From a candidate division FCPU426 bacterium (GTDB taxonomy: Bacteria; Oederibacteriota; PGYV01; Palsa-1178), in the NCBI GenBank assembly GCA_963840035.1, contig CAWIXE010000002.1, positions 1,440,001-1,504,000 of the forward strand: a stretch of 64,000 bases of DNA. Reading direction: 5' to 3'. Of the stretch, positions 42,475 to 59,409 are shown in pieces. The stretch's first letter is position 1; each line of letters begins with the position of its first letter. The notes under the pieces were generated by a model. That model was given only the letters and a program-made list of their open reading frames with translations, searched no databases and was not told where the DNA came from. A program made the translations under genes and the position numbers.

Positions 42475-42577
42475 ATTTTTCTCCTGTACAGGGTTTTACA
42501 ATCATCTTCCCTTATACATGTATTATACTCTACAAACCGCTAAATCCGCAATCTACTATCCGCAATCCGCAATTTCC

Positions 42578-43822
42578 CTACCTTACCCCCCTCTTAAGGG
42601 CCTCAACTATATTCGTCTCAGCCGCCTTGTTAGACGGGTATACCGCGCCTATCGCACCCGCTATCATGCAAACAGTTCCGGCTATCAGCCAGTCGGAAAA
42701 ATGATTCATTGCTTTCATCACAGGCTCAAAAGGGACGTTTAAATCCCCGACCCCCATTTCTTTTATGCTGATTCCATGAACATTCAGGTAGTATACCAGC
42801 GGCAGCACAAGCAACCCGCCAAGAATAACCCCGAGCCCGGATAGCGTCATGCCTTCAATAAAGAAGATCGCGCGGACCTGCCCTTTCGACAGCCCGATGG
42901 CCCTCATCGTGCCAATTTCCGCGGTCCTTTCAAAAACGCTTATTGTCAGTGTGTTTATTATAATAAAGACCGCGAGAAAAAGCAGTATTCCAAATATTAT
43001 GCCATAGCTTATAAAGTCCATTTTAGCGGCGGCAATCAGCGAAGGCTGCTCTTCCATCCAGTCGCGCACTACAAGCCCGGGAAATTCCTTATCAACAACG
43101 TTCCTGATATATTTTTTTGCCTCCGCGACATTATCCCTGCTGTCGAGCCTGACTATTATCTCCGTGGCTTCCCCTCCCATGTCGAGGAAATCCGAAACAA
43201 AACCATAATCGGCATATACAACCATTTTCTCCATGAAAGGAAATCCAGCGGAATAAAAACCGGTTGCCGTGGAATCCACGAGGTTGTTTGCTTTTTGCTT
43301 TGTCTGCCCGTATACAAGCAGCGGATCCCCCTCTTTAATTTTCAGCAATTCAGCAAGCCTTTTGCCGACGAGCAGCCCTGACGAACCCTTTTGCGGCGGA
43401 TTACCCGTCACTTTATTGAATACGGATGATATCTTTTTCCCTTTTTCAAAATTAACCCCGTTTAGCACAACCCCTGTTTTGCGTTTTGTATTGCTTAAGA
43501 TGCAGTCCTTTGTTATCCTCGCGTCAGCCGCCACAAAATGAGGTGCCTTGCTTATGGCCGCGATAACCGCTCCGGGGTCCTTTATTGTCAGGTCCAGCGG
43601 CATCCTTCTTTTTTCCCCCACATAAGCGCTGTTATATATCTTAAAATGGCCGCTTGAGAGGTCTATGGACTTTTCAAACATGAGGTTATACTGCCCGGTT
43701 ATCATGCCCAGCAGCGCCACCAGGGCAAACATATTAGCTGCAAAAGTAAGGGCGTTCAAAAGCGAGCGCCTTTTCTGCTTAAAAACATTGTTTAATGCTA
43801 TCTTTATTATTTTTCTGATCAT
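42578..43822 (-). CDS. ABC permease, LolC/E-FtsX/MacB family (type B, copy 1)
   Basis: ALNNV.KQKRRS, GHFKIY, ERTAEIGTMRAIG. Confidence 0.9.
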   Translation of the reverse strand: MIRKIIKIALNNVFKQKRRSLLNALTFAANMFALVALLGMITGQYNLMFEKSIDLSSGHFKIYNSAYVGEKRRMPLDLTIKDPGAVIAAISKAPHFVAADARITKDCILSNTKRKTGVVLNGVNFEKGKKISSVFNKVTGNPPQKGSSGLLVGKRLAELLKIKEGDPLLVYGQTKQKANNLVDSTATGFYSAGFPFMEKMVVYADYGFVSDFLDMGGEATEIIVRLDSRDNVAEAKKYIRNVVDKEFPGLVVRDWMEEQPSLIAAAKMDFISYGIIFGILLFLAVFIIINTLTISVFERTAEIGTMRAIGLSKGQVRAIFFIEGMTLSGLGVILGGLLVLPLVYYLNVHGISIKEMGVGDLNVPFEPVMKAMNHFSDWLIAGTVCMIAGAIGAVYPSNKAAETNIVEALKRGVR

Positions 43823-45051
43823 TCCAGCACCCTCAAAATGTCGACAGGCTTCTTACTGACAGCTGTTATGGCCGGATACAGCGAAGCCAGGACCGATATA
43901 AGTATTCCGGTAACAGCCGTTACAATTACGCCCCCCGGTGTCAGGGCAGTCCCAATGAGCGAATCAAGCCCTTTAAAAGAGCTCATCATATCCCCCATTG
44001 CCTCATAATTAATCGGGTTTATCTGGAAATAATATACTAGCGCTATTGCCGGGATTAACCCGGCTATGGTCCCTATGACGCCCTCCAGGAAAGATTCCGC
44101 CATTATCATCATGAACAACTGACTCTTCCCGAGCCCCATCGCCCGGAGCACTCCGAACTCAGGCAGCCTGCTCATAACATTCATCAGAAATGAGTTTATT
44201 ATTCCGAGCCCGGCGACGAATACTATTATGCTTGCCATGATATACACGGCAATGTCCATGCTCTCTATCATGTATTTGATCATGGGCTGTTCCTTATTCC
44301 ACGGCACGCAGATCACACCCTCCTGCAGCGCCTTTTGCATATCTGCCGAGGCATGTTCAGCGCTAAAAGGATCCTTTATATTTATCATTATTTCAGTTAC
44401 CCTGCCTTCCATGGCAAGCAATTTTTGCGCCAGCGGCAGCGCGCAGATGACAAGTCCTTCCTCCTCGGGCGGATTATAATTCCTGAAAAATCCGCTCACC
44501 CTTCCTTCAACGGCGTTTATGGAGCCATACTGGTCCATCGTTAAAAGGATCAGGCTGTCCCCGATTTTCAATTTAAGCAGGGCCGCCATCTTTATGCCGA
44601 TTACCAAATCGCCGGGTTTTTTTATAAAGTTTCCCTGTACAACCGTTTTTTTAAGCTTTTCATACTGCCCTCCGGCAGCCTCAGGGTCAAGCGCGCGCAC
44701 AAGCGTTTCCTGGTTTGAGTATTCGCTGTTAGCCATGGCCCCGAAATTTATCTCCGGCCTTACCGAAACAACGCCCGGCATTGAAAGGATTTTTTCCTCA
44801 GACTTTTTATTCCATTCCACGTTTTCTTCGACCGGCGCGAAATCAAGATTGTTATAATAGCCCGCATTGTATATCTTGACATGTCCAATCGCGCTTAAAG
44901 CCTCGTTAATTATCTTTAATTTAAACCCGTCCATGTATCCGTAAGTAAACTCCATGGCGAACACGCTTATAAACACGGCAATAAGTATGGTCAGGGTATT
45001 CCTGCCGTTCTTGAAAATATTGCCAAGCGCAAGCCTTAAAAAGAAAAACAT
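43819..45051 (-). CDS. ABC permease, LolC/E-FtsX/MacB family (type A, copy 1)
   Basis: LALGNI.KN.R, DQYGSINAVEG, RLPEFGVLRAMG. Confidence 0.9.
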   Translation of the reverse strand: MFFFLRLALGNIFKNGRNTLTILIAVFISVFAMEFTYGYMDGFKLKIINEALSAIGHVKIYNAGYYNNLDFAPVEENVEWNKKSEEKILSMPGVVSVRPEINFGAMANSEYSNQETLVRALDPEAAGGQYEKLKKTVVQGNFIKKPGDLVIGIKMAALLKLKIGDSLILLTMDQYGSINAVEGRVSGFFRNYNPPEEEGLVICALPLAQKLLAMEGRVTEIMINIKDPFSAEHASADMQKALQEGVICVPWNKEQPMIKYMIESMDIAVYIMASIIVFVAGLGIINSFLMNVMSRLPEFGVLRAMGLGKSQLFMMIMAESFLEGVIGTIAGLIPAIALVYYFQINPINYEAMGDMMSSFKGLDSLIGTALTPGGVIVTAVTGILISVLASLYPAITAVSKKPVDILRVLE

Positions 45052-45066
45052 GTTTTCACCTGTTTC

Positions 45067-45690
45067 CTATTTATAAATCCCGTATTTTAAAGCCTTATAA
45101 ACAATCTCCATCTTCCGTTTGTAAAACCCTATCATCTTTGCCGGGGTCATGGTGTCATCCGCCTTCATTGCCATTTCATTATCCAGCGCCGAGTCTATAA
45201 GCAGAAGGAGCTCGCCTATCTCTTCCTGCTTAAACCTCAGGTTTGATGTATCAAGCCCGTGAAAGAACATTGCCATAACCGGTTTAATTTTATTCTCAAG
45301 CGCGGCCCTGGTCTTTAGCTGCATTCCGCCGCCGGCCCTTGAGAGCTTCATAAAGAGCTTAAAAAGCCGCGGCTCCTCTTTTTCCCATTCACACGCTTCC
45401 ATCTGCATGGCCACAAACCTGTCGAGTATGTCCGGCGGCAGGTCGTGCATTTTACTGCTCATACGCGTGATAAAATGGTCAAAAGCATGCTCGACTATAT
45501 GCCGGAACATGTGTTCTTTATTTCCAAAATATTTAAATATGCTGCCTTTTGCTATGCCCGCCTTTTTCGCGATGCGGTTAGTGGACGCCATATCATACCC
45601 AACCTCGGCAAACTCATCTATGCAGGCATGGATAATGCGCTCCTGTTTTTCCCTGCTTAACTTCTCAAAAATGCCTTCAGTCTTTTTCAT
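45067..45690 (-). CDS. TetR/AcrR-family transcriptional regulator
   Basis: EFAEVGY..ASTNRIAKKAGIAKGSIFKYF.NKE HTH. Confidence 0.93.
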   Translation of the reverse strand: MKKTEGIFEKLSREKQERIIHACIDEFAEVGYDMASTNRIAKKAGIAKGSIFKYFGNKEHMFRHIVEHAFDHFITRMSSKMHDLPPDILDRFVAMQMEACEWEKEEPRLFKLFMKLSRAGGGMQLKTRAALENKIKPVMAMFFHGLDTSNLRFKQEEIGELLLLIDSALDNEMAMKADDTMTPAKMIGFYKRKMEIVYKALKYGIYK

Positions 45691-45754
45691 ATTTTTCCTT
45701 TTGCACTGTTTTTAATATTTTCTTTGGGATTTGTGATTTGGGCTTTGTGATTAA

Positions 45755-46534
45755 TTATTTATCCTGGTCCGCGTAGCGCCACCAGGCTATTGTCGCGGCA
45801 ATTCCCGCCGCTCCTGTTATTAAGACTATTACCCAGCTTATCAGTCCCGGCTGAAGACCGGCGCCCTTTATCGCATATTGCATCGGAACCGACCACGGAT
45901 AGTACTCTCCGTATCCTATCACCTCGGTAAAATTGATGAACACAGCCGAGAGTATTACAAAGCCCACTGCCGCAAGATACCCCCTCGTAGCGCTTGCGAT
46001 AAAGGCTACCGTTGCATTCAGATATATCACGCCCAGCGTGGCGATAAACAGTTTTAGAAATGTATTTATTGCCGCTGCTTTGTCCCATAAAGGAAGCCCG
46101 ACAATAAACCCGCCCGCAATTGAAAAAATATAAACCAGGATAAAAATTGCGAAACACCAGACGGCAGCAACCGTCATTTTTGAAACCACGATAACCGCCC
46201 TCGGGATTGGAATGGCCAAAAGGTCCTTAACCGTCCTGTCAAGATATTCCCTGCCGAAGACCCAGCTGATTATAAATCCAAAAAGCACTATTTCAATACC
46301 GCATACAGCCTGCGTAAGGAACACAAAATACGAAGGCCAATCGGCAACGCCCATCAGTTTTGCCTTTGCCCCGACCAGCCCGAGCTTGCGCGAGAGTTCC
46401 GGATTTTTCAGGACAAACATCATAAATGACAGCATTGCCGGGATGAATGCCGACAGCACACAAGTAACCGGCAGCACGACGGAACTTACGGCTTTTTTAA
46501 ATTCAGCTTTTATTGATGCCGATATTCCGGTCAT
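45755..46534 (-). CDS. ABC-2 type permease (bacitracin/lantibiotic-resistance-like)
   Basis: Start reassigned to ATG 46534 (ATGA overlap with the ATPase stop); AEFKK, FGREY..RTVK.LL..P, 6 TM. Confidence 0.85.
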   Translation of the reverse strand: MTGISASIKAEFKKAVSSVVLPVTCVLSAFIPAMLSFMMFVLKNPELSRKLGLVGAKAKLMGVADWPSYFVFLTQAVCGIEIVLFGFIISWVFGREYLDRTVKDLLAIPIPRAVIVVSKMTVAAVWCFAIFILVYIFSIAGGFIVGLPLWDKAAAINTFLKLFIATLGVIYLNATVAFIASATRGYLAAVGFVILSAVFINFTEVIGYGEYYPWSVPMQYAIKGAGLQPGLISWVIVLITGAAGIAATIAWWRYADQDK

Positions 46535-47451
46535 CGCGCGCCACCATCCTCCCCGATAATACGCAGGAAGTATTCTTCCAGCCCTTCTTCCTCTATCTTC
46601 AGCATATAAGGCGGTATGCCCGATTTCACAAGCAGCTCCGCCACTTTTTCGGGATTCGACATAGCCTTCGCATCCGGAATAAAGATTGTGCATTCCCCGG
46701 AGATTTCAACCGGGTATCCCTTTGCCGAGAGAGCGCGCGCTGCCTTTTCCCTGTCTTTTACGCCTATTACAAGTTCTTTCTTTCTCAGCCTGTCAAGGCT
46801 CTCAAAATCAGCCTCCTGTATGAGCGCGCCTTTATGTATAATGCCAATGCGTGTTGCCAGCCTTGCCACTTCGCTTAATATATGGCTGGAAATGAATATA
46901 GTAACCCCTGATTCCGCGAGGGACTTTAGAAGCTCCCTTATTTCAACAATGCCTGCAGGGTCAAGCCCGTTAGCGGGCTCGTCAAGAATCAGTATCTCAG
47001 GCGAGTGAATTATTGCTTTTGCGATGCCGAGGCGCTGGGAATTTCCCAGGGAAAGGTTCTTTGCCTTCCTGTCCGCGTATTCATGGAGTTTCATCTTATC
47101 AATGGCGGCTTGAGCGGCTCCCGGCCCTTTTATGCCCCGAAGTGAGGAAAACATCTCAAGGTTTTCCCTGACTGTAAGTTCAGGATAGGCGTATGGCATC
47201 TCAACCAAATGCCCCACCTGCTTCCATATATCGTACTGCCCCGCGTCAACTTTTCTTCCATTTATATAAGCCGACCCTGATGTCGGCTTTATCATCCCGA
47301 GGAGCATACGTATGGTAGTCGTTTTCCCGGCGCCGTTTAACCCGAGGAACCCGTATATTTCCCCTTTTTTAACATTTAAGGAAACATTATTAACGGCTAA
47401 AACTTCCCTGTATTGTTTTGATATGTTTTCCGTGCTTATAACAAAATCCAT
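46531..47451 (-). CDS. ABC ATPase (BcrA-like)
   Basis: GLNGAGKTT, LSLGNSQRLGIA, DEPANGLDPAG, SSHIL. Confidence 0.93.
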   Translation of the reverse strand: MDFVISTENISKQYREVLAVNNVSLNVKKGEIYGFLGLNGAGKTTTIRMLLGMIKPTSGSAYINGRKVDAGQYDIWKQVGHLVEMPYAYPELTVRENLEMFSSLRGIKGPGAAQAAIDKMKLHEYADRKAKNLSLGNSQRLGIAKAIIHSPEILILDEPANGLDPAGIVEIRELLKSLAESGVTIFISSHILSEVARLATRIGIIHKGALIQEADFESLDRLRKKELVIGVKDREKAARALSAKGYPVEISGECTIFIPDAKAMSNPEKVAELLVKSGIPPYMLKIEEEGLEEYFLRIIGEDGGAR

Positions 47452-47532
47452 AAATACTCCTTTGTCTCAGCCCATCCGGATCGTGACTTTAATTGAAAAT
47501 TGTAAATAGAAAATTGAAAATTCGCCTTAATA

Positions 47533-47607
47533 TGACCACTCGGTCACTTTTAAATATATACACCCTCAAATGCCTCTTGTCAAGAAAAAAATGACCGCAT
47601 GGTCATT
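47533..47607 (-). promoter_or_regulatory. promoter flanked by two TGACC-N4-GGTCA palindromes (TetR operator candidates)
   Basis: TGACCACTCGGTCA at 47533-47546; AATGACCGCATGGTCATT at 47590-47607; TTGACA at 47578-47583; AT-rich -10 at about 47553-47560. Confidence 0.75.
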
Positions 47608-47731
47608 ATTAATACTAAGTCAAAAGTCAAAACTCAAAAGTCTAAAGCAGATCAAGTACTAAAACTACCCCTTGAAATCTCAAGTAAATAATTGTAAACT
47701 CAATTGTCTTAAGTAGCCGTAAGGTTCACTT

Positions 47732-47909
47732 GTACTATTAAGAAGATGTGTTTATAGCTTGTCATTGCGAGGAGCCGCTGTTGGTTTATGGCGACGAAGC
47801 AATCTCGTTTTCTCCTTATGGAACAGCGAGATTGCTTCGTCGGCAAGTAATAAAAACGCCTCCTCGCAATGACAAACCTAAAACTGTAAACAGAACATGT
47901 TAACAGTAC
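47732..47909. mobile_element. MITE-like element with palindromic core (47761-47873), inside inverted heptamer arrays
   Basis: Ends GTACTATTAA / TTAACAGTAC; homologous to 24297-24470. Confidence 0.75.
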
Positions 47910-47960
47910 CGTCTAATTTTAGTTTTTGAATTTTGACTTTTAACTTTATATGAGGTTTAT

Positions 47961-48896
47961 ATGACCCCGGATCAGATAAAAAGAGCTAAAACAGTCGCTT
48001 TTGGCATAAGAAAACGTGTGCTGGAGCATACCATCAATAATAACGGCGGTTACTTAAGCCAGGCCTGCTCTTCCGCCGATGTCCTTGCCGCGCTCTATTC
48101 CGGCTTGATGAAACTTGGCATGCCGTCAAAGCCTCTTGTCCCGAAACCTTTTCCCGGTGTCCCCGGGCCATATAATAAGGAATATTTCACCGGCGGCGAA
48201 TTTAACGGCCCTCATACCCCGGAATATGACCGCTTCATCCTCTCCCCTGCCCAGTACGCGCTTGTATTATACGCGTGCCTCATAGAGACAGGACGCATGG
48301 AGGAATCCGGGTTAAAACAGTTCAACAAGGACGGGTCCTCAGTGGAAATGATTGGCGCCGAGCATTCCCCCGGCATGGAAGTCACCAACGGTTCCCTCGG
48401 CCAGGCAATCAGCCAGGCAGCAGGCATTGCTTTAGCCAAGAAAATGAAAAAGGAAACCGGCCGCGTCTGGGTATTCAAATCAGACGGTGAATTCCAGATT
48501 GGCCAGACATGGGAAGCCATACAGTTCATGGTTTACCACAAACTTGATAACATGACCGTTTATGTCGATGTTAACGGCTACCAGTGTGACGGGAAAATGG
48601 ACGCTGTTATGTCCATCGAGCCGCTGGATAAACGGCTTGAAGCTTTTGGCTGCGTTGTATCGCGGATCAACGGACATGACATTGGCGCAATTGAAGCCGC
48701 CGCATCCGTACCCCATGTAGGCAGGCCGCTGGTGGTGATTTGCGATACCAGCGTAAGTGAAGGCTTGCCTGTCATAAATATCAGCGCCCCGAAGTTCCAC
48801 TATATACGCATGAAAAACGACGAAGAAAAACGCCTCTACAACGAAGCGCTCAATAACATGAAAGGACCCTCCGCCGGCAAAGCGGAAGGCATATAG
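47961..48896 (+). CDS. transketolase-like ThDP enzyme, N-terminal subunit (divergent active site)
   Basis: DRFILS, PGME..NGSLGQ, SDGEFQIG..WEA...DVNGYQCDG ThDP motif, NGHD. Confidence 0.9.
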   Translation: MTPDQIKRAKTVAFGIRKRVLEHTINNNGGYLSQACSSADVLAALYSGLMKLGMPSKPLVPKPFPGVPGPYNKEYFTGGEFNGPHTPEYDRFILSPAQYALVLYACLIETGRMEESGLKQFNKDGSSVEMIGAEHSPGMEVTNGSLGQAISQAAGIALAKKMKKETGRVWVFKSDGEFQIGQTWEAIQFMVYHKLDNMTVYVDVNGYQCDGKMDAVMSIEPLDKRLEAFGCVVSRINGHDIGAIEAAASVPHVGRPLVVICDTSVSEGLPVINISAPKFHYIRMKNDEEKRLYNEALNNMKGPSAGKAEGI

Positions 48897-48904
48897 GGGG
48901 CGTC

Positions 48905-49912
48905 ATGGAAATAGTATCAAGGCCGCACGGGCGCAACCTCATAGAATGGGCAAAGGACAAGCCTAAAGTTATAGTTCTTTCCGCCGACTTAACCGGCTCA
49001 TGCGAGGTTGATACTTTCAGGGACACCTATCCTTCACGCTTTATATCCGCAGGCATTGCCGAGCAGAATATGCTCTCTGTAGCTGCCGGAATGTCGCGCG
49101 AAGGCTTCATTCCATTTGTCCATACATTCGCCGTCTTCATATACCGCAGGGCATTTGACCAGGTAGCCATGTCAGTGGCATATTCAAACCTGCCGGTTAA
49201 AATGTTCGGTTTCCTTCCCGGAGTAATGACCCCGGGCGGAGCGACCCACCAGGCTTTCGAAGACATAGCAATCATGCGTTCCCTTCCCAATATGACTGTT
49301 ATTGATACGGCAGACGCCACAGAAATAGAGACAATGCTCGACCCGGTGCTGGCGGTTAACGGGCCGGTGTATATTCGGATCCTGCGCGGCGATGTGCCGA
49401 GGCTTTTCGATAAAAAAGAGCCATTTAAGCTCTCGGTTAACAGGACGCTTAATACGGGCAGCGATATAACCATAGTGTCATGCGGCATCTGTACTGAAGA
49501 GGCCATAAGGGCTGTCGCGGCACTGCGCTCAAAGGGCATTTCCGCGGGCCACATACATATCTCGACCTTAAAGCCGTTTAACGCCGCTGATATCCTTGAA
49601 GCTGTTTCCGCTTCAAAATACGGCGTAATAAGCGTGGAAAACCATACGACCATTGGCGGCCTTGGCTCCATAATATCCGAGGCCATGGCCGAGGCCGGGC
49701 TGGCAAAGAAAATAGAAAAACTCGGCCTGCAGGACAGGTTCGCTCACGGCGCCTCCAAGCGCTACCTCATGAAAGAGTACGGCTTTGACGCCCCTTCAAT
49801 AGTTGCGGCATATGAGAAGCTGTCGGGTTCCATGACCGGGATATCGGATGAAGAACTTAAGGCAGTCGAAATTAAGCCCGTGCATTCCGCCATGAAAGCG
49901 GAAGACCTTTAA
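48905..49912 (+). CDS. transketolase-like ThDP enzyme, pyrimidine-binding/C-terminal subunit
   Basis: LSADL..S, GIAEQNM, RAFDQ, GGATHQ..ED, GPVYIR, LKPF, ENH...GGLGS. Confidence 0.92.
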   Translation: MEIVSRPHGRNLIEWAKDKPKVIVLSADLTGSCEVDTFRDTYPSRFISAGIAEQNMLSVAAGMSREGFIPFVHTFAVFIYRRAFDQVAMSVAYSNLPVKMFGFLPGVMTPGGATHQAFEDIAIMRSLPNMTVIDTADATEIETMLDPVLAVNGPVYIRILRGDVPRLFDKKEPFKLSVNRTLNTGSDITIVSCGICTEEAIRAVAALRSKGISAGHIHISTLKPFNAADILEAVSASKYGVISVENHTTIGGLGSIISEAMAEAGLAKKIEKLGLQDRFAHGASKRYLMKEYGFDAPSIVAAYEKLSGSMTGISDEELKAVEIKPVHSAMKAEDL

Positions 49913-49928
49913 TCAATTTTTATATAAT

Positions 49929-50010
49929 GTAGAGAGCCGGCTTGCTGGCTCTCTAACGTGGACCTGTTCTAAAAGCCAAATGTTTTAGAGGGGGCAAGCC
50001 CCCTCTCTAC
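49929..50010. repeat. GTAG-type REP doublet
   Basis: gtagagagccggcttgctggctctc...gagggggcaagccccctctctac; related half copy at 51391-51415. Confidence 0.7.
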
Positions 50011-50034
50011 GAAAACAATAAAGAGCGGTGATCA

Positions 50035-51147
50035 ATGTCTCAGAACAAAAGATTTTCAGTAATCTACACCTTCACAGGCACTGAAAAAGAAGCCCTTGAA
50101 AAGGCTAAATCTATTTGCGTGGAACAGACAATCGAGTTCCCCCTGGAACTTGTTAGGGACAAATATATCCGTGAAAACATAGTGGGTCAGATCAAATCCT
50201 TCAAAAAATCCGGCAAAAAATTCTCAGCCGAGATCTCATACCTTGACGCCACAGCCGGCCGTGAATTCACCCAGTTCTTAAACGTTGTTTTCGGCAACAC
50301 CTCGATTAAACCCGGCATTAAAGTTGAAAAACTGATGCCCTCAAAGGAAATTCTCGCCATTGTAAAAGGCCCGCGCTTCGGCATAGGCGGCATAAGAAAA
50401 CTCACCGGTGTTTACGGCCGGCCCCTTCTATGCTCCGCTTTGAAGCCTATGGGATTGTCAGTAAAAGCGCTGGCTGAAATGGCGTATAAGTTCGCTCTAG
50501 GCGGCATTGATATTATCAAAGACGACCACGGCCTCGCGAACCAGCCTTTCTCCCCTTTTGAAAAAAGGATAGAAACTGTCTGCAAAGCCGTAGATAAAGC
50601 CAACAAGGAAACAGGTTATAAAACCCTGTACGCCCCGAATATTACAGCTGACCGAAATGATACAATTAAACGCGCGAAGTTCGCTAAAGCCGCAGGCGCA
50701 AAGAGCCTCATAATATCGCCCGGACTCGCGGGACTGGAAAACATGAGGCTAATAGCGGAAGACAGTTCCATAGGGCTTCCCGTCTTCTACCATCCCGCTT
50801 TTCACGGTTCATATGTTGTAAACCCCGATTCAGGCATATCCCACTATGCCTTCTTCGGCCAGTTAATGAGAATGGCCGGCGCAGACGCGGTTATCTTTCC
50901 CAACTACGGCGGCAGGTTCTCTTTTTCGCAGGATGAGTGCGCATCCATAGCGGACGGATGCCGCGGCAAATTCGGCAGCCTTAAGCCCATCCTCCCCGGA
51001 CCAGGCGGCGGCATGACCATGGACAGAATACCGGCAATAAAAAAGTTTTACGGAAATGACGTGGTATTTTTAATGGGCGGCGGGCTTTTTGCGGCAGGAA
51101 CAGATTTAGTGGATAATTGCAGGAAGTTTAAAAAATTAGTTGAATAA
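50035..51147 (+). CDS. rlp: RuBisCO-like protein (form IV, KDDH type; putative 5-methylthioribulose-1-phosphate isomerase)
   Basis: EQTIEFP, FGNTS, GPRFG..GIR, CSALKP.GL, IKDDHGLANQ, GADAVIFPN.GGRF, PGGG, GGG; 370 aa. Confidence 0.9.
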   Translation: MSQNKRFSVIYTFTGTEKEALEKAKSICVEQTIEFPLELVRDKYIRENIVGQIKSFKKSGKKFSAEISYLDATAGREFTQFLNVVFGNTSIKPGIKVEKLMPSKEILAIVKGPRFGIGGIRKLTGVYGRPLLCSALKPMGLSVKALAEMAYKFALGGIDIIKDDHGLANQPFSPFEKRIETVCKAVDKANKETGYKTLYAPNITADRNDTIKRAKFAKAAGAKSLIISPGLAGLENMRLIAEDSSIGLPVFYHPAFHGSYVVNPDSGISHYAFFGQLMRMAGADAVIFPNYGGRFSFSQDECASIADGCRGKFGSLKPILPGPGGGMTMDRIPAIKKFYGNDVVFLMGGGLFAAGTDLVDNCRKFKKLVE

Positions 51148-51162
51148 GTATCTAAGCGCATT

Positions 51163-51199
51163 ACCTGAGACGCCCCACCTGAGACGCCCCACCTGAGAC
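51163..51199. repeat. 14-bp tandem repeat ACCTGAGACGCCCC x2.6
   Basis: Read directly, between convergent genes. Confidence 0.8.
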
Positions 51200-51207
51200 T
51201 ACTTCCC

Positions 51208-51375
51208 CTATTCCTTCGGCAGCCTTAACCCCAGCTTCTTCAGCCTTATATAATAATTAAAATTATCTTCCCCTGGTTTCCTTGGCGGGACTTCAATCGT
51301 TTTTGTGACGGTCTTTATTGTACTTGTAGACCTCTTTGTCATCGAATAACTTTTATTCTTTCCCATTGCATCCAT
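51208..51375 (-). CDS. small basic hypothetical protein
   Basis: Open frame continuing the orientation of the amidohydrolase operon; start uncertain (51375 or 51366). Confidence 0.4.
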   Translation of the reverse strand: MDAMGKNKSYSMTKRSTSTIKTVTKTIEVPPRKPGEDNFNYYIRLKKLGLRLPKE

Positions 51376-51442
51376 CGCCCTTTCCGCCCGGAGAGGCAGC
51401 AAGCCGCCTCTCTACAGGGTCTTTTCTGACGGCCATGCTTTT

Positions 51443-51504
51443 GTAGGGGCAATTCACGAATTGCCCAACCCGGTGAAGGCGGGCGATTCATGAATCGCCC
51501 CTAC
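51443..51504. repeat. GTAG-type REP doublet
   Basis: Inverted copy of 29917-29979. Confidence 0.8.
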
Positions 51505-51525
51505 AATACCAACAACGACAACTAA

Positions 51526-52332
51526 TTATAACCCCAGCAGTTTTTCCGCGTTCTTATGATATATCAATTCTTTTACGTTACCCTGAATAATGCCATCAAG
51601 CTTCTTCTCGATATTTGCCGCGGTTTCCCAGGGAAAATCAGTTCCAAAAAGTATCTTTTCAGGGCCATGAGCCATAATCATCCTTTTTATGGTAATGTCT
51701 TTCATCTCCACGCAATATGCCGTATCAAGGTAGATGTTCTTTCCGATTAAGTACTTAGTCACATCATCCCACATCTTATAACCGCCCATGTGCGCCATTA
51801 TAAGTGTCAGGCCTTCGATTGTCGCTACCTGCGCAAGGCGCTTTGGAGTGGCGTGTATTTCCGGGAACGCGAGGTCCGCGCCGGCGTGGAACAATATGAA
51901 TAGGTTGTGTTTTCTGCAGGCCTCATATATTTCCCAGTGCTCGGGATCGTCAGGATAAAACGCCTGATACTCAGGGTGGAGTTTTATCCCCTTTATCCCT
52001 TTGGACGCTATAAACGCCAGTTCCTCATCCACGTTTCCAATTTCATAAAAATCAGGGTGCATGGCGCCCAGGCATATTACCGAACCGTCGCCCGTTTCAT
52101 TCTGAGCTATCATTTTCCTGTTGATGGATATTACCTGTTCTTTTTTTGTGGCGGGCGGCGCGTTAACCGATACTGCCACACCGTCCCTTTTCATATATTC
52201 TTTTACAGCCGCAATCGTGCCGTCGCCGTATGATGTGACCGGTTCCATCGAGAGCGACTTTAAGTGCTCCAGTGTTTTCGGGGCAATGCTGTCGGGAAAA
52301 TAGTGCGTGTGAAAATCAATAATTTTTGTCAT
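51526..52332 (-). CDS. amidohydrolase_2 family metallo-hydrolase
   Basis: IDFHTH, GIKLHP..Q, FHAG, AHMGG, ILFGTDFPW. Confidence 0.9.
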   Translation of the reverse strand: MTKIIDFHTHYFPDSIAPKTLEHLKSLSMEPVTSYGDGTIAAVKEYMKRDGVAVSVNAPPATKKEQVISINRKMIAQNETGDGSVICLGAMHPDFYEIGNVDEELAFIASKGIKGIKLHPEYQAFYPDDPEHWEIYEACRKHNLFILFHAGADLAFPEIHATPKRLAQVATIEGLTLIMAHMGGYKMWDDVTKYLIGKNIYLDTAYCVEMKDITIKRMIMAHGPEKILFGTDFPWETAANIEKKLDGIIQGNVKELIYHKNAEKLLGL

Positions 52333-52670
52333 TACTTTACTTCATTCTTATAGTGGATTACTCTTACTTTTTCAAGCGTTACCATTCCGCCTTTATGCAT
52401 CTTTTCTATGACCGGTATGAGATTATTCAGCTTATCCTCCGTATCGACAATTTCAACAATTAACGGCAGGTCTCCGGACATCTCCAGTACCTTTGCGGTA
52501 TGTATCCGCGATGTCTTGCCAAAACCCATTATGCCCCTGATTACAGTTGCCCCGGCCATATTAAGTTCCCTTGCCTTGAGCACTATGGCTTCATAAGCCG
52601 GTTTCCCCTCAAACTTTTCGCTCTCCCCAATGAATATCCTCAGCAGTGCCGATTCCCTCGGTAATTCCAT
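52332..52670 (-). CDS. DUF190 protein (PII-like fold, CrcB-associated)
   Basis: LLRIFIGE, AGATVIRGIMGFG, LPLIVEIVD. Confidence 0.93.
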   Translation of the reverse strand: MELPRESALLRIFIGESEKFEGKPAYEAIVLKARELNMAGATVIRGIMGFGKTSRIHTAKVLEMSGDLPLIVEIVDTEDKLNNLIPVIEKMHKGGMVTLEKVRVIHYKNEVK

Positions 52671-53071
52671 TACATGCCTCCCCTTAATAGTTTTGTAAGG
52701 TACTTTGCGGTAATCATCCCCGCGAACACCAGAAGTATCGAACCAATATTATTAACCAATATGTTCATCAACGCGGCATTGCTTTCACCGTTATTTAATA
52801 GATTGACGCTTTCAAGGGCATACGCGGAAAAGGTCGTGAATCCACCCATAAAACCGACAAGCAGAAAGATCCTTGTTTCAGGTTTCATGGTTGTTTCAGT
52901 GGATATTCCCCAGACAAATCCGGCCAAAAATGAACCGGCAAGATTAACCGCAAGGGTGCCGTAAGGAAAAATCGATTTAACCTGAAGCAGCTGGTTGACA
53001 TAGGTGGAAAGGCCGAAACGCGACGCTGAGCCTATCGCCCCTCCGATAAGAACAAGAATAAAATTTAACAA
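52670..53071 (-). CDS. crcB: fluoride channel Fluc/CrcB
   Basis: GGAIGSASRF, FPYGTLAVN, GFMGGFTTFS; TTG 53071 after AAGGAG. Confidence 0.95.
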   Translation of the reverse strand: MLNFILVLIGGAIGSASRFGLSTYVNQLLQVKSIFPYGTLAVNLAGSFLAGFVWGISTETTMKPETRIFLLVGFMGGFTTFSAYALESVNLLNNGESNAALMNILVNNIGSILLVFAGMITAKYLTKLLRGGM

Positions 53072-53084
53072 ATACGGCTCCTTT

Positions 53085-53954
53085 TTACCTGCGGACTGAC
53101 CCGAGTTTTGATTCATTATAAATACGTTTATTTTGTTCCACCTTATTCATGGTATAAAGGTGTATCCCTGAAACACCATGGTCTATGAGGTGGTTTATCT
53201 GGCCTACAGTGTATTTAACAGTTTCATCGCATACAGGGTTGTCTATACTGCAGGTCGAAGTCGCTAACCTGAACCTTTCGGGTATCTCCACCCCGCACAT
53301 GCCTGCCATGCGCTCAAGGTTCAATAACTTTGTAGCTGTCATGATACCGGGTATTAACGGTGCATTTATCCCTGCATGTAAAACCCTATCCCTGAAGCTG
53401 AAAAAGTGGTCATTATCAAGGAACAACTGCGTCGTCATGAAATCCGCCCCGGCATCCACTTTTTCCTTCAGGTGCATTAAATCGTCCGCTGCCGATCCTG
53501 CCTGCGGGTGTTTTTCAGGGTAACACGCGACGCCCACGGAGAAATCAAGCCCGCTTTTTTTAATAAAACTTACCAGGTCAGCGGCATATTTAAAATCCTT
53601 CAGCGGGTCTTTAACATCCGGCGGCAAATCGCCCCTTAAAGCCATAATATTATCAACGCCTTTTGATTTAAGCTCATGAAGTATGGACATGATCGAGTCT
53701 TTTGTGGCGCCTATGCACGTTAAGTGCGCCAGGGCAGGCACTTTAAAATGATTATTTATCTTATCGGCTATTTCCACGGTCCTTCCCCTTGTGGATCCGC
53801 CCGCGCCGAATGTAACGCTGATATAATCAGGGTTTAACTCTTTTAACTGCTCTATAGTATTAAATATGACATTGATATCGGTATCCGGTTTTGGCGGGAA
53901 TACCTCCATGGAAAAGACGAACTTTTTTGCCTTAAGTATTTCCTTGATTTTCAC
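53085..53954 (-). CDS. metF: 5,10-methylenetetrahydrofolate reductase
   Basis: SMEVFPPK, SVTFGAGG, AHLTC, ALRGD, YPEKH, TQLF, HLYTMN. Confidence 0.95.
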   Translation of the reverse strand: MKIKEILKAKKFVFSMEVFPPKPDTDINVIFNTIEQLKELNPDYISVTFGAGGSTRGRTVEIADKINNHFKVPALAHLTCIGATKDSIMSILHELKSKGVDNIMALRGDLPPDVKDPLKDFKYAADLVSFIKKSGLDFSVGVACYPEKHPQAGSAADDLMHLKEKVDAGADFMTTQLFLDNDHFFSFRDRVLHAGINAPLIPGIMTATKLLNLERMAGMCGVEIPERFRLATSTCSIDNPVCDETVKYTVGQINHLIDHGVSGIHLYTMNKVEQNKRIYNESKLGSVRR

Positions 53955-54054
53955 TCTTCATCTCCTGAAATATTGTTTCCATATTATTATATAAAGAACG
54001 GCATTTGACAAGGATAAACAGCAAGTTATGATTGCATCAGGGCGCCATCCGGGC

Positions 54055-54087
54055 AAAAAAATGGGCGGGCATTACGCCCGCCCATTA
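54055..54087. terminator. intrinsic terminator
   Basis: aaaaaaatgggcgggc-attac-gcccgcccatt. Confidence 0.8.
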
Positions 54088-54102
54088 ACACACTATATTA
54101 TC

Positions 54103-55191
54103 TTAGTTCCAGGTTATGTCGTCGATATACCAGTCGCCCGTTCCCGCAGCGTCTGTAGGTACCGCAGAATTCTTATAAATCTGAATAAAAATCCTCTCCG
54201 CGTTTGCAACAGTAACTCCTGTCCATGTAGCTGTGACCCATCCGCCTGAAGCATTGGCTGTGGTAAGCGAAGTATACCCGCCTGAAGAATCAGCCCATAC
54301 AGAATCCTGGATATGTATGCCGACTTTGTATACGTCAGTATCGCCCGTATACGCCAAAACATCTGCCGGTGGCTTTATTTTGCAGGAAATTGTCGATGTG
54401 CTGAAACTAACGTGCTGTTTCAGGTCGCGCTGTATGTTTATCTGGTTATTTACAACGTTAAAAGTTGCCGCCACCTTCATGCAGCCTGTCGTGCTTCCTT
54501 CAGCTGTATTATCCCAGGAAAGTGCCGTAACAGCTCCCCCTCCATACTGCCAGTTGGCTGTCTGGTTAGTCGCAAAATTATAGGCGCCTTCCACAAAAGC
54601 CGGGCCTACCTCTATTAAATCCACGAACATATCTGACGAAGCCGTGCCTGACCAACCGCCGTCAACATACATATTCAGCCCCATTTTGGTGACTGTTGTA
54701 GGGTCTGTAATCTGAGACGCGTTCTGATGAATTTCTATCCACTGACCCGGATAGAAATTGTAATCCCATCCTTCTGCGTAAGAAGATGTATTGCTGATGG
54801 TGAACACTTTTGCCCCGCCGTAATTCGATCCGTTTGCAGGCCACGATGACGGTACATAAATCCTGGCGTAAATGGTCTTTCCCGTCATATCTTTTACTGT
54901 GTGTGTCAGGCTTACAAGGGCTGACCTTCCGGTGCTTGCGATCGTGGAATCAAACGAGGCCGCTACGTCCATGGAGTGTGTTCCGGAATACGCATGCGCT
55001 GTAGAAACCGTGAAACCGGTCGACTGATTTTCGGGTGTTCCCCATCCTTCCAGGCTTGACTCAAAATCAAAAGTCCCCCATGCCGGCGGTGTCGGTCCGG
55101 GCCCGGGATCTGTCGTTGTGCTTTTCTTGGCGCAGGAAATTACAAAAACCAGTGCTATTACAACTGCAATTACAACAACAATTTTCTTCAT
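54103..55191 (-). CDS. surface lipoprotein with two CBM-like beta-sandwich domains
   Basis: Lipobox VISC-AKK, PGPGPTP linker, FDFE...GW...AYSGTHSM modules, ends WYIDDITW. Confidence 0.75.
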   Translation of the reverse strand: MKKIVVVIAVVIALVFVISCAKKSTTTDPGPGPTPPAWGTFDFESSLEGWGTPENQSTGFTVSTAHAYSGTHSMDVAASFDSTIASTGRSALVSLTHTVKDMTGKTIYARIYVPSSWPANGSNYGGAKVFTISNTSSYAEGWDYNFYPGQWIEIHQNASQITDPTTVTKMGLNMYVDGGWSGTASSDMFVDLIEVGPAFVEGAYNFATNQTANWQYGGGAVTALSWDNTAEGSTTGCMKVAATFNVVNNQINIQRDLKQHVSFSTSTISCKIKPPADVLAYTGDTDVYKVGIHIQDSVWADSSGGYTSLTTANASGGWVTATWTGVTVANAERIFIQIYKNSAVPTDAAGTGDWYIDDITWN

Positions 55192-55356
55192 CTTTTACCT
55201 CCCTGATAATTTTGTTTCCCTTATATAACATTTAAATTATAAACGTAAACATTTGTAAAATCAAGATATTTAAATAGCCCGCTTCTGAATTGTACCGTTT
55301 TTCATCAATTCAAACTGTTTGACCGTTAAAACCTGAAAGGTATAAATATGCGTGTT

Positions 55357-56187
55357 CTAAAAATATTTTTTGACCAGTTCTTTCACCCTCTTTACGCAAA
55401 CCGGGAAGAACTCCTTTTCATTCTGTGCCTTAACATTCTTGTCTTCTGTCTTTAAAAAATCCTGTCCCTCATACTCTATGGCGATGAACCCTGCGTACTT
55501 AGCCTCCGCCAGTATCTTAACGGTCTTATCCAGGTCAAAATCCGATGTTTTCTTTCCGTCTTTTGAAATGGTGTGAATCTTTAAGTGGATGTATTTCGCG
55601 TACTTCACAGTCTCTTTTATTGCCTTTAATATGTCCTTATCGTGGTAATTCCCGGTATCAAGGTTAAGCTTAAAAAACTCCGAATTTACATCATTTAAAA
55701 ACTTAACTGTCGAGGCGGAATCCGGAAGGAATCCCCCCCCGTTATGCGGTTCAAGCACCAGCGTTATGCCCTTAGTCGCGGCGTATTCTGCTGACTTTTT
55801 CATGGACGCCACAGCCTTGCCCCAGAGCGCTTCCCTTTTACCCTGCGGCGGCCATCCCGCGAATACCCTGACAACAGGCGCGCCGAGTATCTCCGCCGCG
55901 TCAACTGACTTTTTTACGTAATCCTCGTTGGACGCCTGCGCCTTATCATCCTCGTTGCCGAAATTATTCCCCGGCGACAGGCATGTTATGGTCAGGTTCC
56001 TGTCAGTCGCGTATTTCTTTACCTTCCTTAAGTGCGCGGGCTCAAGCGAAAGCAGGTGTTCGTTGATGAATTCAATACCGCCAAGCCCCGCTTCCGCGTA
56101 TACGTCCATAAGTTTGAACTCGTCCGCCAGTTTCAGGTCATATGAGTGGTGCTGGGACCAGGTAATTGCAGATAATTTAAATGCCAT
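55357..56187 (-). CDS. sugar phosphate isomerase/epimerase (AP_endonuc_2, xylose-isomerase-like TIM barrel)
   Basis: GIEF, LEPH, LDTGN, IHLK, AIEYEG metal ligands. Confidence 0.9.
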   Translation of the reverse strand: MAFKLSAITWSQHHSYDLKLADEFKLMDVYAEAGLGGIEFINEHLLSLEPAHLRKVKKYATDRNLTITCLSPGNNFGNEDDKAQASNEDYVKKSVDAAEILGAPVVRVFAGWPPQGKREALWGKAVASMKKSAEYAATKGITLVLEPHNGGGFLPDSASTVKFLNDVNSEFFKLNLDTGNYHDKDILKAIKETVKYAKYIHLKIHTISKDGKKTSDFDLDKTVKILAEAKYAGFIAIEYEGQDFLKTEDKNVKAQNEKEFFPVCVKRVKELVKKYF

Positions 56188-56199
56188 GTCACACTCTCC

Positions 56200-57231
56200 T
56201 TATACTGTCAATTTAACAGGTTTGCCGGTCTTGGCTGCCTGTCTTGTAGCTATTATTACAGCCGCGGATTTCATGCCTTCCGTCCCGTCAATGATGCATT
56301 TTTTTCCGTTCAATACGCAATCCACAAAATGCGGCACCGGTCCCGCGAGCCTGCTTTTTTCCGGCACAGTGTAATCCACCTCTTTAACAGTGCTGTACGG
56401 ATTTTTCGGGTCTACGGTCCAAACGCGCACCCTCTTCGGGTCATAGTTGGACTGGTTCACTATCGCCTTGCCCTTTGTGCCGTATAACTGCACTACAACC
56501 TCATAAGGGCTGTTAGTCCATGATGCTTCATATACTCCGAGGGTGCCGTCAGTGAATTTCACTGCCGCCTCTATGTTATCCTCAAGCTTGAATTTTTTCT
56601 TTACCAGATTCGCCATAAAGCTTGTTACGCTGTGAACTTCCTTGCCCGTTATGAACCTGATAACGTCCAGTATGTGTATGCCCACATCCGTGGCGCACCC
56701 GCCGCCGGATTTCTTTTCGTCAAAATACCACGGGGAGTCATCGGACCAGAATTCCGGCCCTGAATGCCCGAGCTTGCCGCGCACCGAGACTATGTCCCCT
56801 ATGATGCCGCTGTCAACCACGTCCTTTAGCACCTCATGCGCGGGGTCAAACCTGTGCGTCTGTTCGACCATGAGCACTACCTTATTTGCCTTGGCGGTCT
56901 TTATCATAAGCTTCATTTCTTTCACTGAAAGCCCCATGGGTTTTTCCACAAGTACATGCTTTTTGTTCTTTGCGGCGAATATCGTGACCGGCGCATGCAG
57001 GTAATTAGGAAGACATACCGAAACCGCGTCAATCCCCGCTTCCGCTATCATTTTTTTGTAGTCTGTGTAAACATTCGGGACATTGAACATTTTAGCAAGC
57101 TTCTCAGCTTTCCTTTTATTTAGGTCACAAATTGCCACAACTTCCGACCCTGAAGCGTCCTTATACCCCGGCAGATGCAGCCTCTCCGCTATTTTCCCAG
57201 CGCCGATAATGCCAATCTTTAACTTTCCCAT
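56200..57231 (-). CDS. Gfo/Idh/MocA-family NAD(P)-dependent oxidoreductase
   Basis: GIIGAGKIA, PNYLH, HVLVEKP, SGGG...DVGIH..D; ATG 57231 after AGGAGG. Confidence 0.93.
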   Translation of the reverse strand: MGKLKIGIIGAGKIAERLHLPGYKDASGSEVVAICDLNKRKAEKLAKMFNVPNVYTDYKKMIAEAGIDAVSVCLPNYLHAPVTIFAAKNKKHVLVEKPMGLSVKEMKLMIKTAKANKVVLMVEQTHRFDPAHEVLKDVVDSGIIGDIVSVRGKLGHSGPEFWSDDSPWYFDEKKSGGGCATDVGIHILDVIRFITGKEVHSVTSFMANLVKKKFKLEDNIEAAVKFTDGTLGVYEASWTNSPYEVVVQLYGTKGKAIVNQSNYDPKRVRVWTVDPKNPYSTVKEVDYTVPEKSRLAGPVPHFVDCVLNGKKCIIDGTEGMKSAAVIIATRQAAKTGKPVKLTV

Positions 57232-57278
57232 AAAGCCTCCTGTTATATAGTTGTATAAAACGCTTTCGTGATTAATTA

Positions 57279-57311
57279 AAAAAACCGGGAGAAGCATTCA
57301 CTCTCCCGGTT
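57279..57311. terminator. intrinsic terminator
   Basis: aaaaaaccgggaga...tctcccggtt after the 57326-59284 gene. Confidence 0.65.
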
Positions 57312-57325
57312 AAATATTTAACCTA

Positions 57326-59284: not shown

Positions 59285-59320
59285 AAACCCTCCTCAGAAT
59301 AAATATGACTGAACAAAACG

Positions 59321-59349
59321 ATTATACTTACGAAAACGCTTTTTGTCAA
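59321..59349 (-). promoter_or_regulatory. consensus sigma70 promoter TTGACA-17-TATAAT with AAAACGCTTT in the spacer
   Basis: -35 at 59344-59349, -10 at 59321-59326, motif at 59333-59342. Confidence 0.75.
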
Positions 59350-59409
59350 ATAGTTTTTATTGCCTCTAAAGTATATGCTAATCCAAAATCTAGAATCCAG
59401 AATCCGTTA

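Follow-up and report, generated by a model that had tools for sequence, protein, structure and literature searches.

A transketolase-like enzyme partnered with a RuBisCO-like protein as a candidate oxygen-independent step in the salvage of S-adenosylmethionine by-products

What is the role of a split transketolase (TK) encoded beside a RuBisCO-like protein (RLP) in a bacterium that has two canonical TKs, a full TktA and a split enzyme, elsewhere in its genome? The question is raised by three genes in a 64,000-nucleotide stretch of DNA (the window; positions 1,440,001 to 1,504,000 of contig CAWIXE010000002.1, assembly GCA_963840035.1) from a candidate division FCPU426 bacterium (GTDB lineage Oederibacteriota; PGYV01; Palsa-1178). 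An earlier note, made from the letters of the window, described them as co-oriented genes for the two parts of a TK (TK-N and TK-C) and for an RLP, and this is borne out by the coordinates of the open reading frames (ORFs; Table 1) and by their Pfam domains, which are Transketolase_N in TK-N, Transket_pyr and Transketolase_C in TK-C, and RuBisCO_large in the RLP. The gaps are 8 nt between TK-N and TK-C and 122 nt between TK-C and the RLP gene, and none of the three proteins reaches an NCBIfam equivalog cut-off. The set of three genes is real, and it is both conserved and widespread. Very probably, the TK-like enzyme acts on the product of the RLP in the salvage of by-products of S-adenosylmethionine (SAM). 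At a probability of about one in two, it does so by thiamine diphosphate (ThDP)-dependent cleavage of 1-methylthioxylulose-5-phosphate (MTXu-5P) to glyceraldehyde 3-phosphate (GAP), followed by elimination of methanethiol that leaves an acetyl unit.

The residues of the TK-like enzyme were counted in 248 TK-N and 112 TK-C rows (database matches and fetched loci, near-duplicates kept), and equivalences were read against PDB 6yak, human TK (phmmer) and the genome's own canonical TKs (MAFFT); the numbers and roles given for H26, H261, H461, E411 and I189 are those that we take to hold for canonical TK. The cofactor machinery is kept across rows, as D175, N205 and H280 (His261; 245/248 rows) of TK-N and E53, H115 (His473), S32 (Ser385) and R161 (Arg520) of TK-C, and the ThDP motif (SDGE...N205) and catalytic glutamate (GIAEQ) that the earlier note had reported as kept are present when compared with all three references. 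The retention of His261 was missing from that note, as was the replacement of His461 by Leu104 of TK-C in 111/112 rows. Among the substitutions that had been proposed by eye, SGH to GGY31 is present, with tyrosine at the His26 position in 248/248 rows, and so is EDGPTHQ to PGGATHQ, with glycine at the Asp469 position in 111/112 rows. The change of SKGH to SPAQ98 is found in the window protein but is not a signature of the clade, position 98 being His in 105/248 and Gln in 143/248 rows. For LQGHP to VEMI131G, the lack of histidine at the His100 position stood, but the exact residue did not, the register being ambiguous by one (I131 by phmmer to human TK, M130 by MAFFT); the position is Ile in 248/248 rows in one register and Met/Leu/Gln in the other. 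A Pro-rich insert said to span ~30 residues is also present, its length being corrected to 27 residues (55-81) by alignment to the genome's own canonical TKs. The contacts of His26, His100 and Asp469, and that of His461 too, are thus replaced, Arg358 is aligned to Ser/Thr with Arg/Lys one residue further in 101/112 rows, and newly conserved features comprise E129, E134, H135, C36 (243/248 rows), C209 (245/248 rows), R283, the insert and a C-terminal tail.

It had been proposed from these changes that the donor lacks a C1 hydroxyl and that the enzyme belongs to the salvage of 5'-methylthioadenosine (MTA) or 5'-deoxyadenosine. In TK, H66, H100 and H473 bind the donor, H100 is replaced by Phe in 1-deoxyxylulose 5-phosphate (DXP) synthase (DXS), and the exchange H100L raises the use of pyruvate (PMC7661550). 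These data support a donor without the C1 hydroxyl, and the proposal as a whole is supported. The AlphaFold model of TK-N has a pLDDT of 88 overall, and its best Foldseek match is 6yak (TM-score 0.75); residues 130-137 of the signature loop that replaces the His100 loop have a pLDDT below 50, and the role of H135 is not to be read from the model. Searches of the ESM Atlas returned generic TK clusters only, no match to the phosphoketolase (XFP) or sulfoacetaldehyde acetyltransferase (Xsc) families was found in Pfam, NCBIfam or PDB searches of the TK subunits, and TK-C scored 162.8 bits against a cut-off of 465.95 with the NCBIfam model of DXS.

The RLP carries IKDDHG, CSALKP and GADAVIFPNYGGRF, and all of the motifs that had been ascribed to it, the last being of the GADAVIFPN.GGRF type, are therefore present. 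Its best match in the PDB is 3qfw (E 4.8e-80), a protein that we take to be from Rhodopseudomonas palustris and that also has IKDDHG and FPNYGGRF; the next match lies at 5.9e-44, and structures of the enolase MtnW follow 3qfw at about 1e-44. Scores remain far under the cut-offs of two models of the MtnW/YkrW enolase kind (176.5, for MtnW, vs 513.6 and 220.8 vs 409 bits) and of the apionate decarboxylase model OiaX (83.2 vs 700 bits), and no Aldolase_II-family gene, as for the MtnB dehydratase of the enolase route, was found in the genome. In a quick IQ-TREE phylogeny (84 chosen rows, Rru_A1998 and RPA2169 not among them; midpoint root, SH-aLRT supports), the window RLP falls inside a 77-row clade of TK-partnered, cupin-partnered and unpartnered RLPs (SH-aLRT 98), which is separated by a branch of 0.95 from seven RLPs with KDDE and holds all 14 cupin-partnered RLPs of the tree. 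The phylogeny asked for by the earlier note thus groups the protein apart from the KDDE RLPs and together with the cupin-partnered ones, and motif, 3qfw match, tree and sub-cut-off scores agree on the KDDH, cupin-partnered kind of RLP rather than an enolase or apionate decarboxylase. Membership of the DeepYkr (Rhodospirillum rubrum) type is indicated indirectly. 3QFW has been termed an RLP (PMC13454268), and an RLP with a cupin is what published work gives as the mark of the MTA-isoprenoid shunt, where the RLP converts 5-methylthioribulose-1-phosphate (MTRu-1P) to MTXu-5P (PMC4958253, PMC5893883); the activities of RLPs are diverse (PMC10176493). Judged by its family, the window RLP is likely to be an MTRu-1P 1,3-isomerase.

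Some members of the same clade lack both partners. Neither a TK nor a cupin lies in the fetched stretch of 17 clade rows, 14 of which (L166, L168 and L170-L181, from the Nitrospirota sample) have KDDQ and form a well-supported group with neither partner within ~5 kb; a further RLP function is possible for them. Three KDDH RLPs (L066, L072 and L074) are close to the cupin fusions, yet have no cupin domain and no TK nearby.

The link between the TK-like enzyme and the RLP extends well beyond the window. In the window's phylum the TK clade was found in 28/99 genomes, each of which (28/28) has an RLP at 49% identity or above, and in a 29th RLP-bearing genome TK-C stands beside the RLP at a contig end. 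A sample of 251 Nitrospirota genomes has the TK in 47 and the RLP in 46 of these, 44 at 51% identity or above, one truncated and one frameshifted, the latter two next to the TK. The co-occurrence with KDDH RLPs that a neighbourhood survey had been expected to reveal is therefore found. Among 133 TK loci from genomes and metagenomes (near-duplicates not removed), 93 have an RLP, 12 have none despite room and 28 are too short, which amounts to 93/105 of those with room downstream; the genomes behind four TK loci without an adjacent RLP (L009, L060, L061 and L062) have one elsewhere. The loci with a named source come from Bacillota, Chloroflexota, Nitrospirota, Myxococcota and Spirochaetota, and the distribution is patchy, since a survey of one Chloroflexota class (Anaerolineae) found the set in 1/201 sampled genomes. 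One-chain forms of TK-N and TK-C are common. Amongst 58 long RLP relatives there are 16 RLP-TK-N-TK-C fusions that keep the motifs of the clade, the named ones being from diatoms (Cyclotella, Thalassiosira and Skeletonema), and 28 RLP-cupin fusions. The gene immediately after TK-C in L092, L097, L113 and L115 belongs to the carboxymuconolactone decarboxylase (CMD) family.

The cupin that acts in the MTA-isoprenoid shunt had been noted as missing from the operon, and none was found among the operon genes; the closest thing in the genome to the cupins fused to RLPs, a weak match (E 6e-8) encoded elsewhere, joins a cupin to a phosphatase-like domain. The two partners alternate. In nine genomes of the phylum that lack the TK, the RLPs stand at 36-42% identity, and in six of these a cupin is fused to the RLP; two Nitrospirota loci (L182 and L183) have a TK-type RLP (54-55%), no TK match, and a cupin and metY beside the RLP. 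In the quick tree, the RLPs of L182 and L183 are sister to the TK-partnered L013 (SH-aLRT 96) and the RLP-cupin fusions form the sister group of the TK fusions from diatoms (SH-aLRT 99), such that cupin-partnered RLPs are nested among TK-partnered ones at least twice. No cupin match was found in the TK loci examined. On the simplest reading of this swap, both partners therefore likely use the same RLP product, MTXu-5P; the TK is likely, from these comparisons of sequence, to consume the substrate of the sulfur-releasing cupin and to stand in for it. Glutathione was considered as the factor that selects between cupin and TK and was rejected, as GshB is found in 0/99 genomes of the phylum, cupin-bearing ones included, and does not discriminate. 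A hydrolase-like gene lies between RLP and cupin in the RLP-X-cupin-metY run of both Nitrospirota loci (L182:5994-6875 and L183:4931-5794).

The window's own genome (G000, 98% complete) encodes a phosphorylase next to mtnA (C2:419723-421762; MtnA over its cut-off), as well as speE, metY-cysK-metX-metW, pta-ackA, dxs and dxr; searches of it found no MtnK, no class II aldolase and no nitrogenase-like protein. A route to MTRu-1P is thus likely to exist, with the phosphorylase beside mtnA presumed to act on MTA. This phosphorylase has Asp (VTD) at the position usually held by Asn and is a candidate MTA/5'-deoxyadenosine phosphorylase outside the MTAP family; VTD would presumably fit 6-aminopurines, as we assume from the human Asn243Asp variant. 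In other genomes mtnA adjoins the TK genes in 8 loci, including mtnK-mtnA-regulator-TK-TK-RLP-sugar importer in L132 and mtnA-mtnK-TK-TK-RLP in L156 (MtnK over its cut-off in both) and importer (nucleoside)-mtnA-TK-TK-RLP-phosphorylase in L162, and speE lies just upstream of the TK genes in L044. As far as could be tested, nothing marks the RLP as an enolase or apionate decarboxylase, the TK as an ordinary one or the genome as lacking a route to MTRu-1P, these being the three outcomes that the earlier note had held against its own proposal.

Genes of sulfur metabolism accompany the TK in several places. In L057, metW-metY-metX-cysK lie directly upstream of the TK genes on the same strand, and in L153 metY-like and cysK-like genes lie upstream. 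Second, RLP-less TK pairs (L060 in G094 and L061 in G092; TK-N 55% identity) lie beside a metY/cysK sulfur island, where they end a same-strand run of sulfur-assimilation and siroheme genes and are followed by a RidA-family gene. Across the phylum, metY is present in 27/28 TK genomes vs 33/71 others.

A sequence of steps can be proposed from these findings. MTA would be converted to 5-methylthioribose-1-phosphate and then to MTRu-1P by the phosphorylase and MtnA that are encoded together, and the RLP, if it acts as its family does, would isomerise MTRu-1P to MTXu-5P. ThDP would then add to C2 of MTXu-5P and H280 would take the proton of the C3 hydroxyl, with departure of GAP, as the kept TK residues suggest. 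The resulting enamine would have CH2-S-CH3 where that of TK has CH2OH, a difference consistent with a hydrophobic side chain in place of His100. This enamine, with its beta-methylthio group, can be protonated (giving an aldehyde), transferred, or relieved of the thiolate to give acetyl-ThDP. Loss of the thiolate, the predicted outcome, would follow the chemistry of phosphoketolase and sulfoacetaldehyde acetyltransferase, which provide precedents for ThDP-dependent elimination (PMC13500476, PMC13327070). Acetyl-ThDP would be discharged as acetate, acetyl phosphate or acetyl-CoA, and methanethiol would be returned to methionine by MetY/MetX, the genes of which are present; the net reaction predicted in this way would proceed without oxygen, a redox partner or a thiol cofactor. 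Elimination of methanethiol is ranked above release of an aldehyde on account of the alternation of the TK with the sulfur-releasing cupin, its clustering with metY in some genomes and the failure to find a nitrogenase-like reductase in this genome. The broader proposal, tentative and somewhat less probable than the elimination itself, is of a new class of ThDP enzyme, an MTXu-5P methanethiol-lyase applying chemistry like that of phosphoketolase to a thioether, that would complete an anaerobic route of methionine salvage free of cofactors, from MTA to adenine, GAP, an acetyl unit and methanethiol, would have exchanged places with the cupin several times, and would occur in many bacterial phyla and, fused to the RLP, in diatoms.

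A number of findings weigh against this proposal. One Nitrospirota genome with the TK, G531, has no RLP match, and its TK-C is frameshifted. The window genome's phosphorylase scores as PNP I (302.6, cut-off 293.35) and not as MTAP (81.9, cut-off 274.85), mtnA is near universal in the phylum (93/99), so that its presence alone says little, and the operons with an importer, mtnK and mtnA could serve 5-deoxyribose. In the family f22, metY is found in 8/9 TK genomes vs 1/22 others, but these genomes are kin and the figures may reflect few events; in TK-bearing Nitrospirota it is found in 3/47, and the link with sulfur is therefore not general. AckA shows no association with the TK within f22 (3/9 vs 8/22) and neither pta nor ackA was found in any TK locus fetched, and for these reasons acetyl phosphate is not favoured as the product. 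The acid histidine of phosphoketolase, which we take to stand at the His100 position, is absent here, and the loop that could replace it is of low confidence in the model. Finally, the absence of class II aldolase across the whole order of the window (PF00596; 0/24 genomes vs 63/75 others of the phylum) fits release of an aldehyde equally well.

That alternative, which is the one put forward by the earlier note, holds that MTXu-5P (and DXP) is cleaved, that the enamine is protonated, and that methylthioacetaldehyde or acetaldehyde is released with GAP, with products like those of the aldolase of the dihydroxyacetone phosphate (DHAP) shunt. Protonation of the enamine could be the task of the invariant E129, E134 and H135, a single enzyme would handle MTA as well as 5'-deoxyadenosine, as the DHAP shunt does (PMC13474568), and the Nitrospirota without metY are accommodated. 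We consider it unlikely, although the strongest of the competing explanations: sulfur would not be recovered, no nitrogenase-like (methylthio-alkane) reductase being found in the genome; the partner with which the TK is swapped is the cupin and not the aldolase; 7/9 TK genomes in f22 also have a match to the class II aldolase family; and, in a scan of 106 flanking genes, a short-chain dehydrogenase turned up once (L008), while alcohol or aldehyde dehydrogenases did not recur. More doubtful again is that the main substrate is DXP, formed by the RLP from 5-deoxyribulose-1-phosphate (radical-SAM waste or imported 5-deoxyribose) and split into GAP and acetaldehyde or an acetyl unit in a reversal of DXS without CO2. 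A hydrophobic residue at the His100 position is shared with DXS, the operons of importer, kinase and isomerase resemble 5-deoxyribose clusters (PMC6079011), and the genome has 36 ORFs of more than 200 aa with CxxxCxxC, many of them radical-SAM-like; against this, with Dxr and Dxs both encoded, DXP has a direct use and its splitting would oppose Dxs, and the cupin swaps and the clustering with metY would be left unexplained.

The fold, the nearest solved structures (6yak) and the retention of E53, H115, H280, S32 and R161 would also suit a true TK of shifted specificity, which transfers a methylthio- or deoxy-C2 unit to an aldose acceptor, but Asp469 and His461, which we take to lie on the acceptor side, are lost in 111/112 rows and no recurrent downstream gene for a thio-sugar was seen among the flanking genes, which makes it improbable. 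Slightly more improbable is that the set handles some other sugar phosphate, in the manner of the RLPs for apiose or hamamelose, or that the enzyme is an ordinary housekeeping TK. We take the apulose-4-phosphate and sulfofructose transketolases to be split TKs, and no apiose or sulfosugar gene recurs among the flanking families of the TK loci. The diversity of RLP activities (PMC10176493) and the 12/105 informative loci without an adjacent RLP speak for such readings, and the low OiaX and MtnW scores, the mtnA, mtnK, speE and metY neighbours, the two canonical TKs already in the genome and the RLPs found elsewhere in the genomes behind four of the loci speak against them. Least probable of all is that the enzyme mimics the cupin, in that C209, C36 or a small thiol accepts the methylthio group in disulfide form and DXP is what remains of the carbon skeleton: the conservation of the two cysteines and the CMD-family gene in four loci would fit, but addition of ThDP at C2 would remove the carbonyl that such chemistry needs, and the complete set of residues for ThDP cleavage is kept.

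Proposed as it is to eliminate methanethiol, the system can be set beside those already described. The MTA-isoprenoid shunt of Rhodospirillum rubrum and Rhodopseudomonas palustris consists of MtnP, MtnA, a DeepYkr RLP, a cupin MTXu-5P methylsulfurylase and an O-acetylhomoserine sulfhydrylase (PMC4958253, PMC5893883, PMC4334135). The present set resembles it in having a phosphorylase and MtnA upstream, an RLP of a clade that partners cupins elsewhere, MetY and a predicted independence of oxygen, and differs in that a ThDP enzyme replaces the cupin, the phosphorylase is PNP I-type rather than MTAP-type, and the prediction is for GAP and a C2 unit in place of DXP, no thiol serving as reductant. 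It would work like the shunt as far as MTXu-5P but is not a member of it, as there is no cupin, and the enzyme is neither a canonical TK nor a DXS. With canonical TK (E. coli TktA and the split alpha2beta2 TK of Carboxydothermus hydrogenoformans, PDB 6yak), it shares the fold (29% identity for TK-N), the ThDP motif and the equivalents of Glu411, His261, His473, Ser385 and Arg520; it differs in the four replaced contacts (Tyr for His26, a hydrophobic residue for His100, Leu for His461 and Gly for Asp469), in the insert and conserved C-terminal tail, and in scores far below the NCBIfam TK cut-offs. DXS is similar in its TK-like fold and non-histidine at the His100 position and is distinguished by the score of TK-C, by the separate dxs in the genome and by Gly at the Asp469 position. 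The proposed elimination of a beta-substituent from a ThDP enamine to acetyl-ThDP would be analogous to that of XFP and Xsc, but the enzyme is in neither sequence family and the leaving group would be methanethiolate. The DHAP shunt (MtnK/MtnP, MtnA and the class II aldolase Ald2/DrdA) is alike in its upstream genes, in the style of its importer-kinase-isomerase operons and in splitting a 5-substituted pentulose phosphate into C3 and C2; here no class II aldolase was found, an RLP and a ThDP enzyme replace one enzyme, and the triose is predicted to be GAP.

A search of the literature, which did not extend to the primary papers of 2008-2012, supplements or theses, found no account of a TK partner for the MTA/RLP pathway. 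TK genes may already have been noted in that literature beside some RLPs of the clade, so that the pairing itself is less securely new than is the lack, among the papers searched, of any activity characterised for it. In the parts available, the lists of MTA routes in the legend of a 2023 preprint and in a 2026 review (PMC13474568) name no TK partner, and the word 'transketolase' occurs nowhere in the MTA/RLP papers searched nor in two RuBisCO overviews (PMC13454268, PMC10176493). The set appears to be an RLP-based salvage of SAM by-products with an uncharacterised ThDP enzyme, a step apparently undescribed and predicted to be oxygen-free. Many bacteria have mtnA but no described downstream route for MTA or 5'-deoxyadenosine, as the 24 genomes of the window's order exemplify for the aldolase routes, and the TK-RLP set would fill that gap and give a large RLP subgroup a function. 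Thousands of genes annotated as TK or DXS in metabolic models would be corrected. Should methanethiol be eliminated, the reaction would be new ThDP chemistry and a possible route to a volatile sulfur compound in bacteria of groundwater, sediment and digesters, as well as in diatoms, where the fused enzyme would be an unrecognised source of methanethiol or a recycling route.

Table 1. Coordinates in the window of the operon, its sequence features and metF
Feature	Position	Strand	Remarks
TK-N (diphosphate-binding) subunit, 311 aa	47961..48896	+	Y31 at His26 position; H280 = His261; invariant E129/I131/E134/H135; C209 at Ile189 position
Pro/Gly-rich insert, 27 residues (aa 55-81)	48123..48203	+	Conserved in the clade, not in the genome's canonical TKs
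Signature loop VEMIGAEHSPG replacing the His100 loop	48342..48374	+	Residues 130-137 with pLDDT <50
TK-C (pyrimidine-binding and C-terminal) subunit, 335 aa	48905..49912	+	E53 = Glu411; H115 = His473; S32/R161 kept; L104 for His461; G112 for Asp469
PGGATHQ motif	49232..49252	+	Gly at Asp469 position
Form IV RuBisCO-like protein, KDDH type, 370 aa	50035..51147	+	Likely MTRu-1P 1,3-isomerase
KDDH motif of the RLP	50518..50529	+	Present in 87/87 aligned TK-type RLPs
metF, one of a set of converging minus-strand genes (also crcB, DUF190 and an amidohydrolase gene)	53085..53954	-	Neighbour outside the operon

The distance of ~2 kb to metF given by the earlier note is right (1.9 kb), but its use as evidence did not hold, the gene converging on the operon with the crcB, DUF190 and amidohydrolase genes in between; metF, crcB and amidohydrolase genes are found as a block in 19 loci, of which 15 come from or match the window's order; this reads mostly as synteny, and metF was rejected as pathway evidence. 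No Rfam match was found in window 40000-60000, and a promoter scan gave a signal at about chance level. Long imperfect inverted repeats resembling repetitive extragenic palindromes lie in spacer DNA ahead of, inside and behind the operon (window 47750-47884, 49929-50010 and 51436-51511), and a 14-nt tandem repeat lies at window 51163-51190. In the remainder of the genome, the canonical split TK (G000 C1:1008532-1011325) has its N subunit fused behind a ribokinase-like domain, and two regions (G000 C3:1-8500 and C2:1699000-1707000) contain GC-rich ORFs unlike the rest, including a frameshifted dxs on C3, which may be contamination of the assembly. Two TGACC-N-GGTCA palindromes (window 47532-47551 and 47587-47610) are situated upstream of a divergent ABC/TetR operon (47451 to 45067, minus strand) and are likely TetR operators, and related ABC permease-like genes of ~410 aa each occupy window 39992-45051 as two tandem pairs, all on the minus strand.

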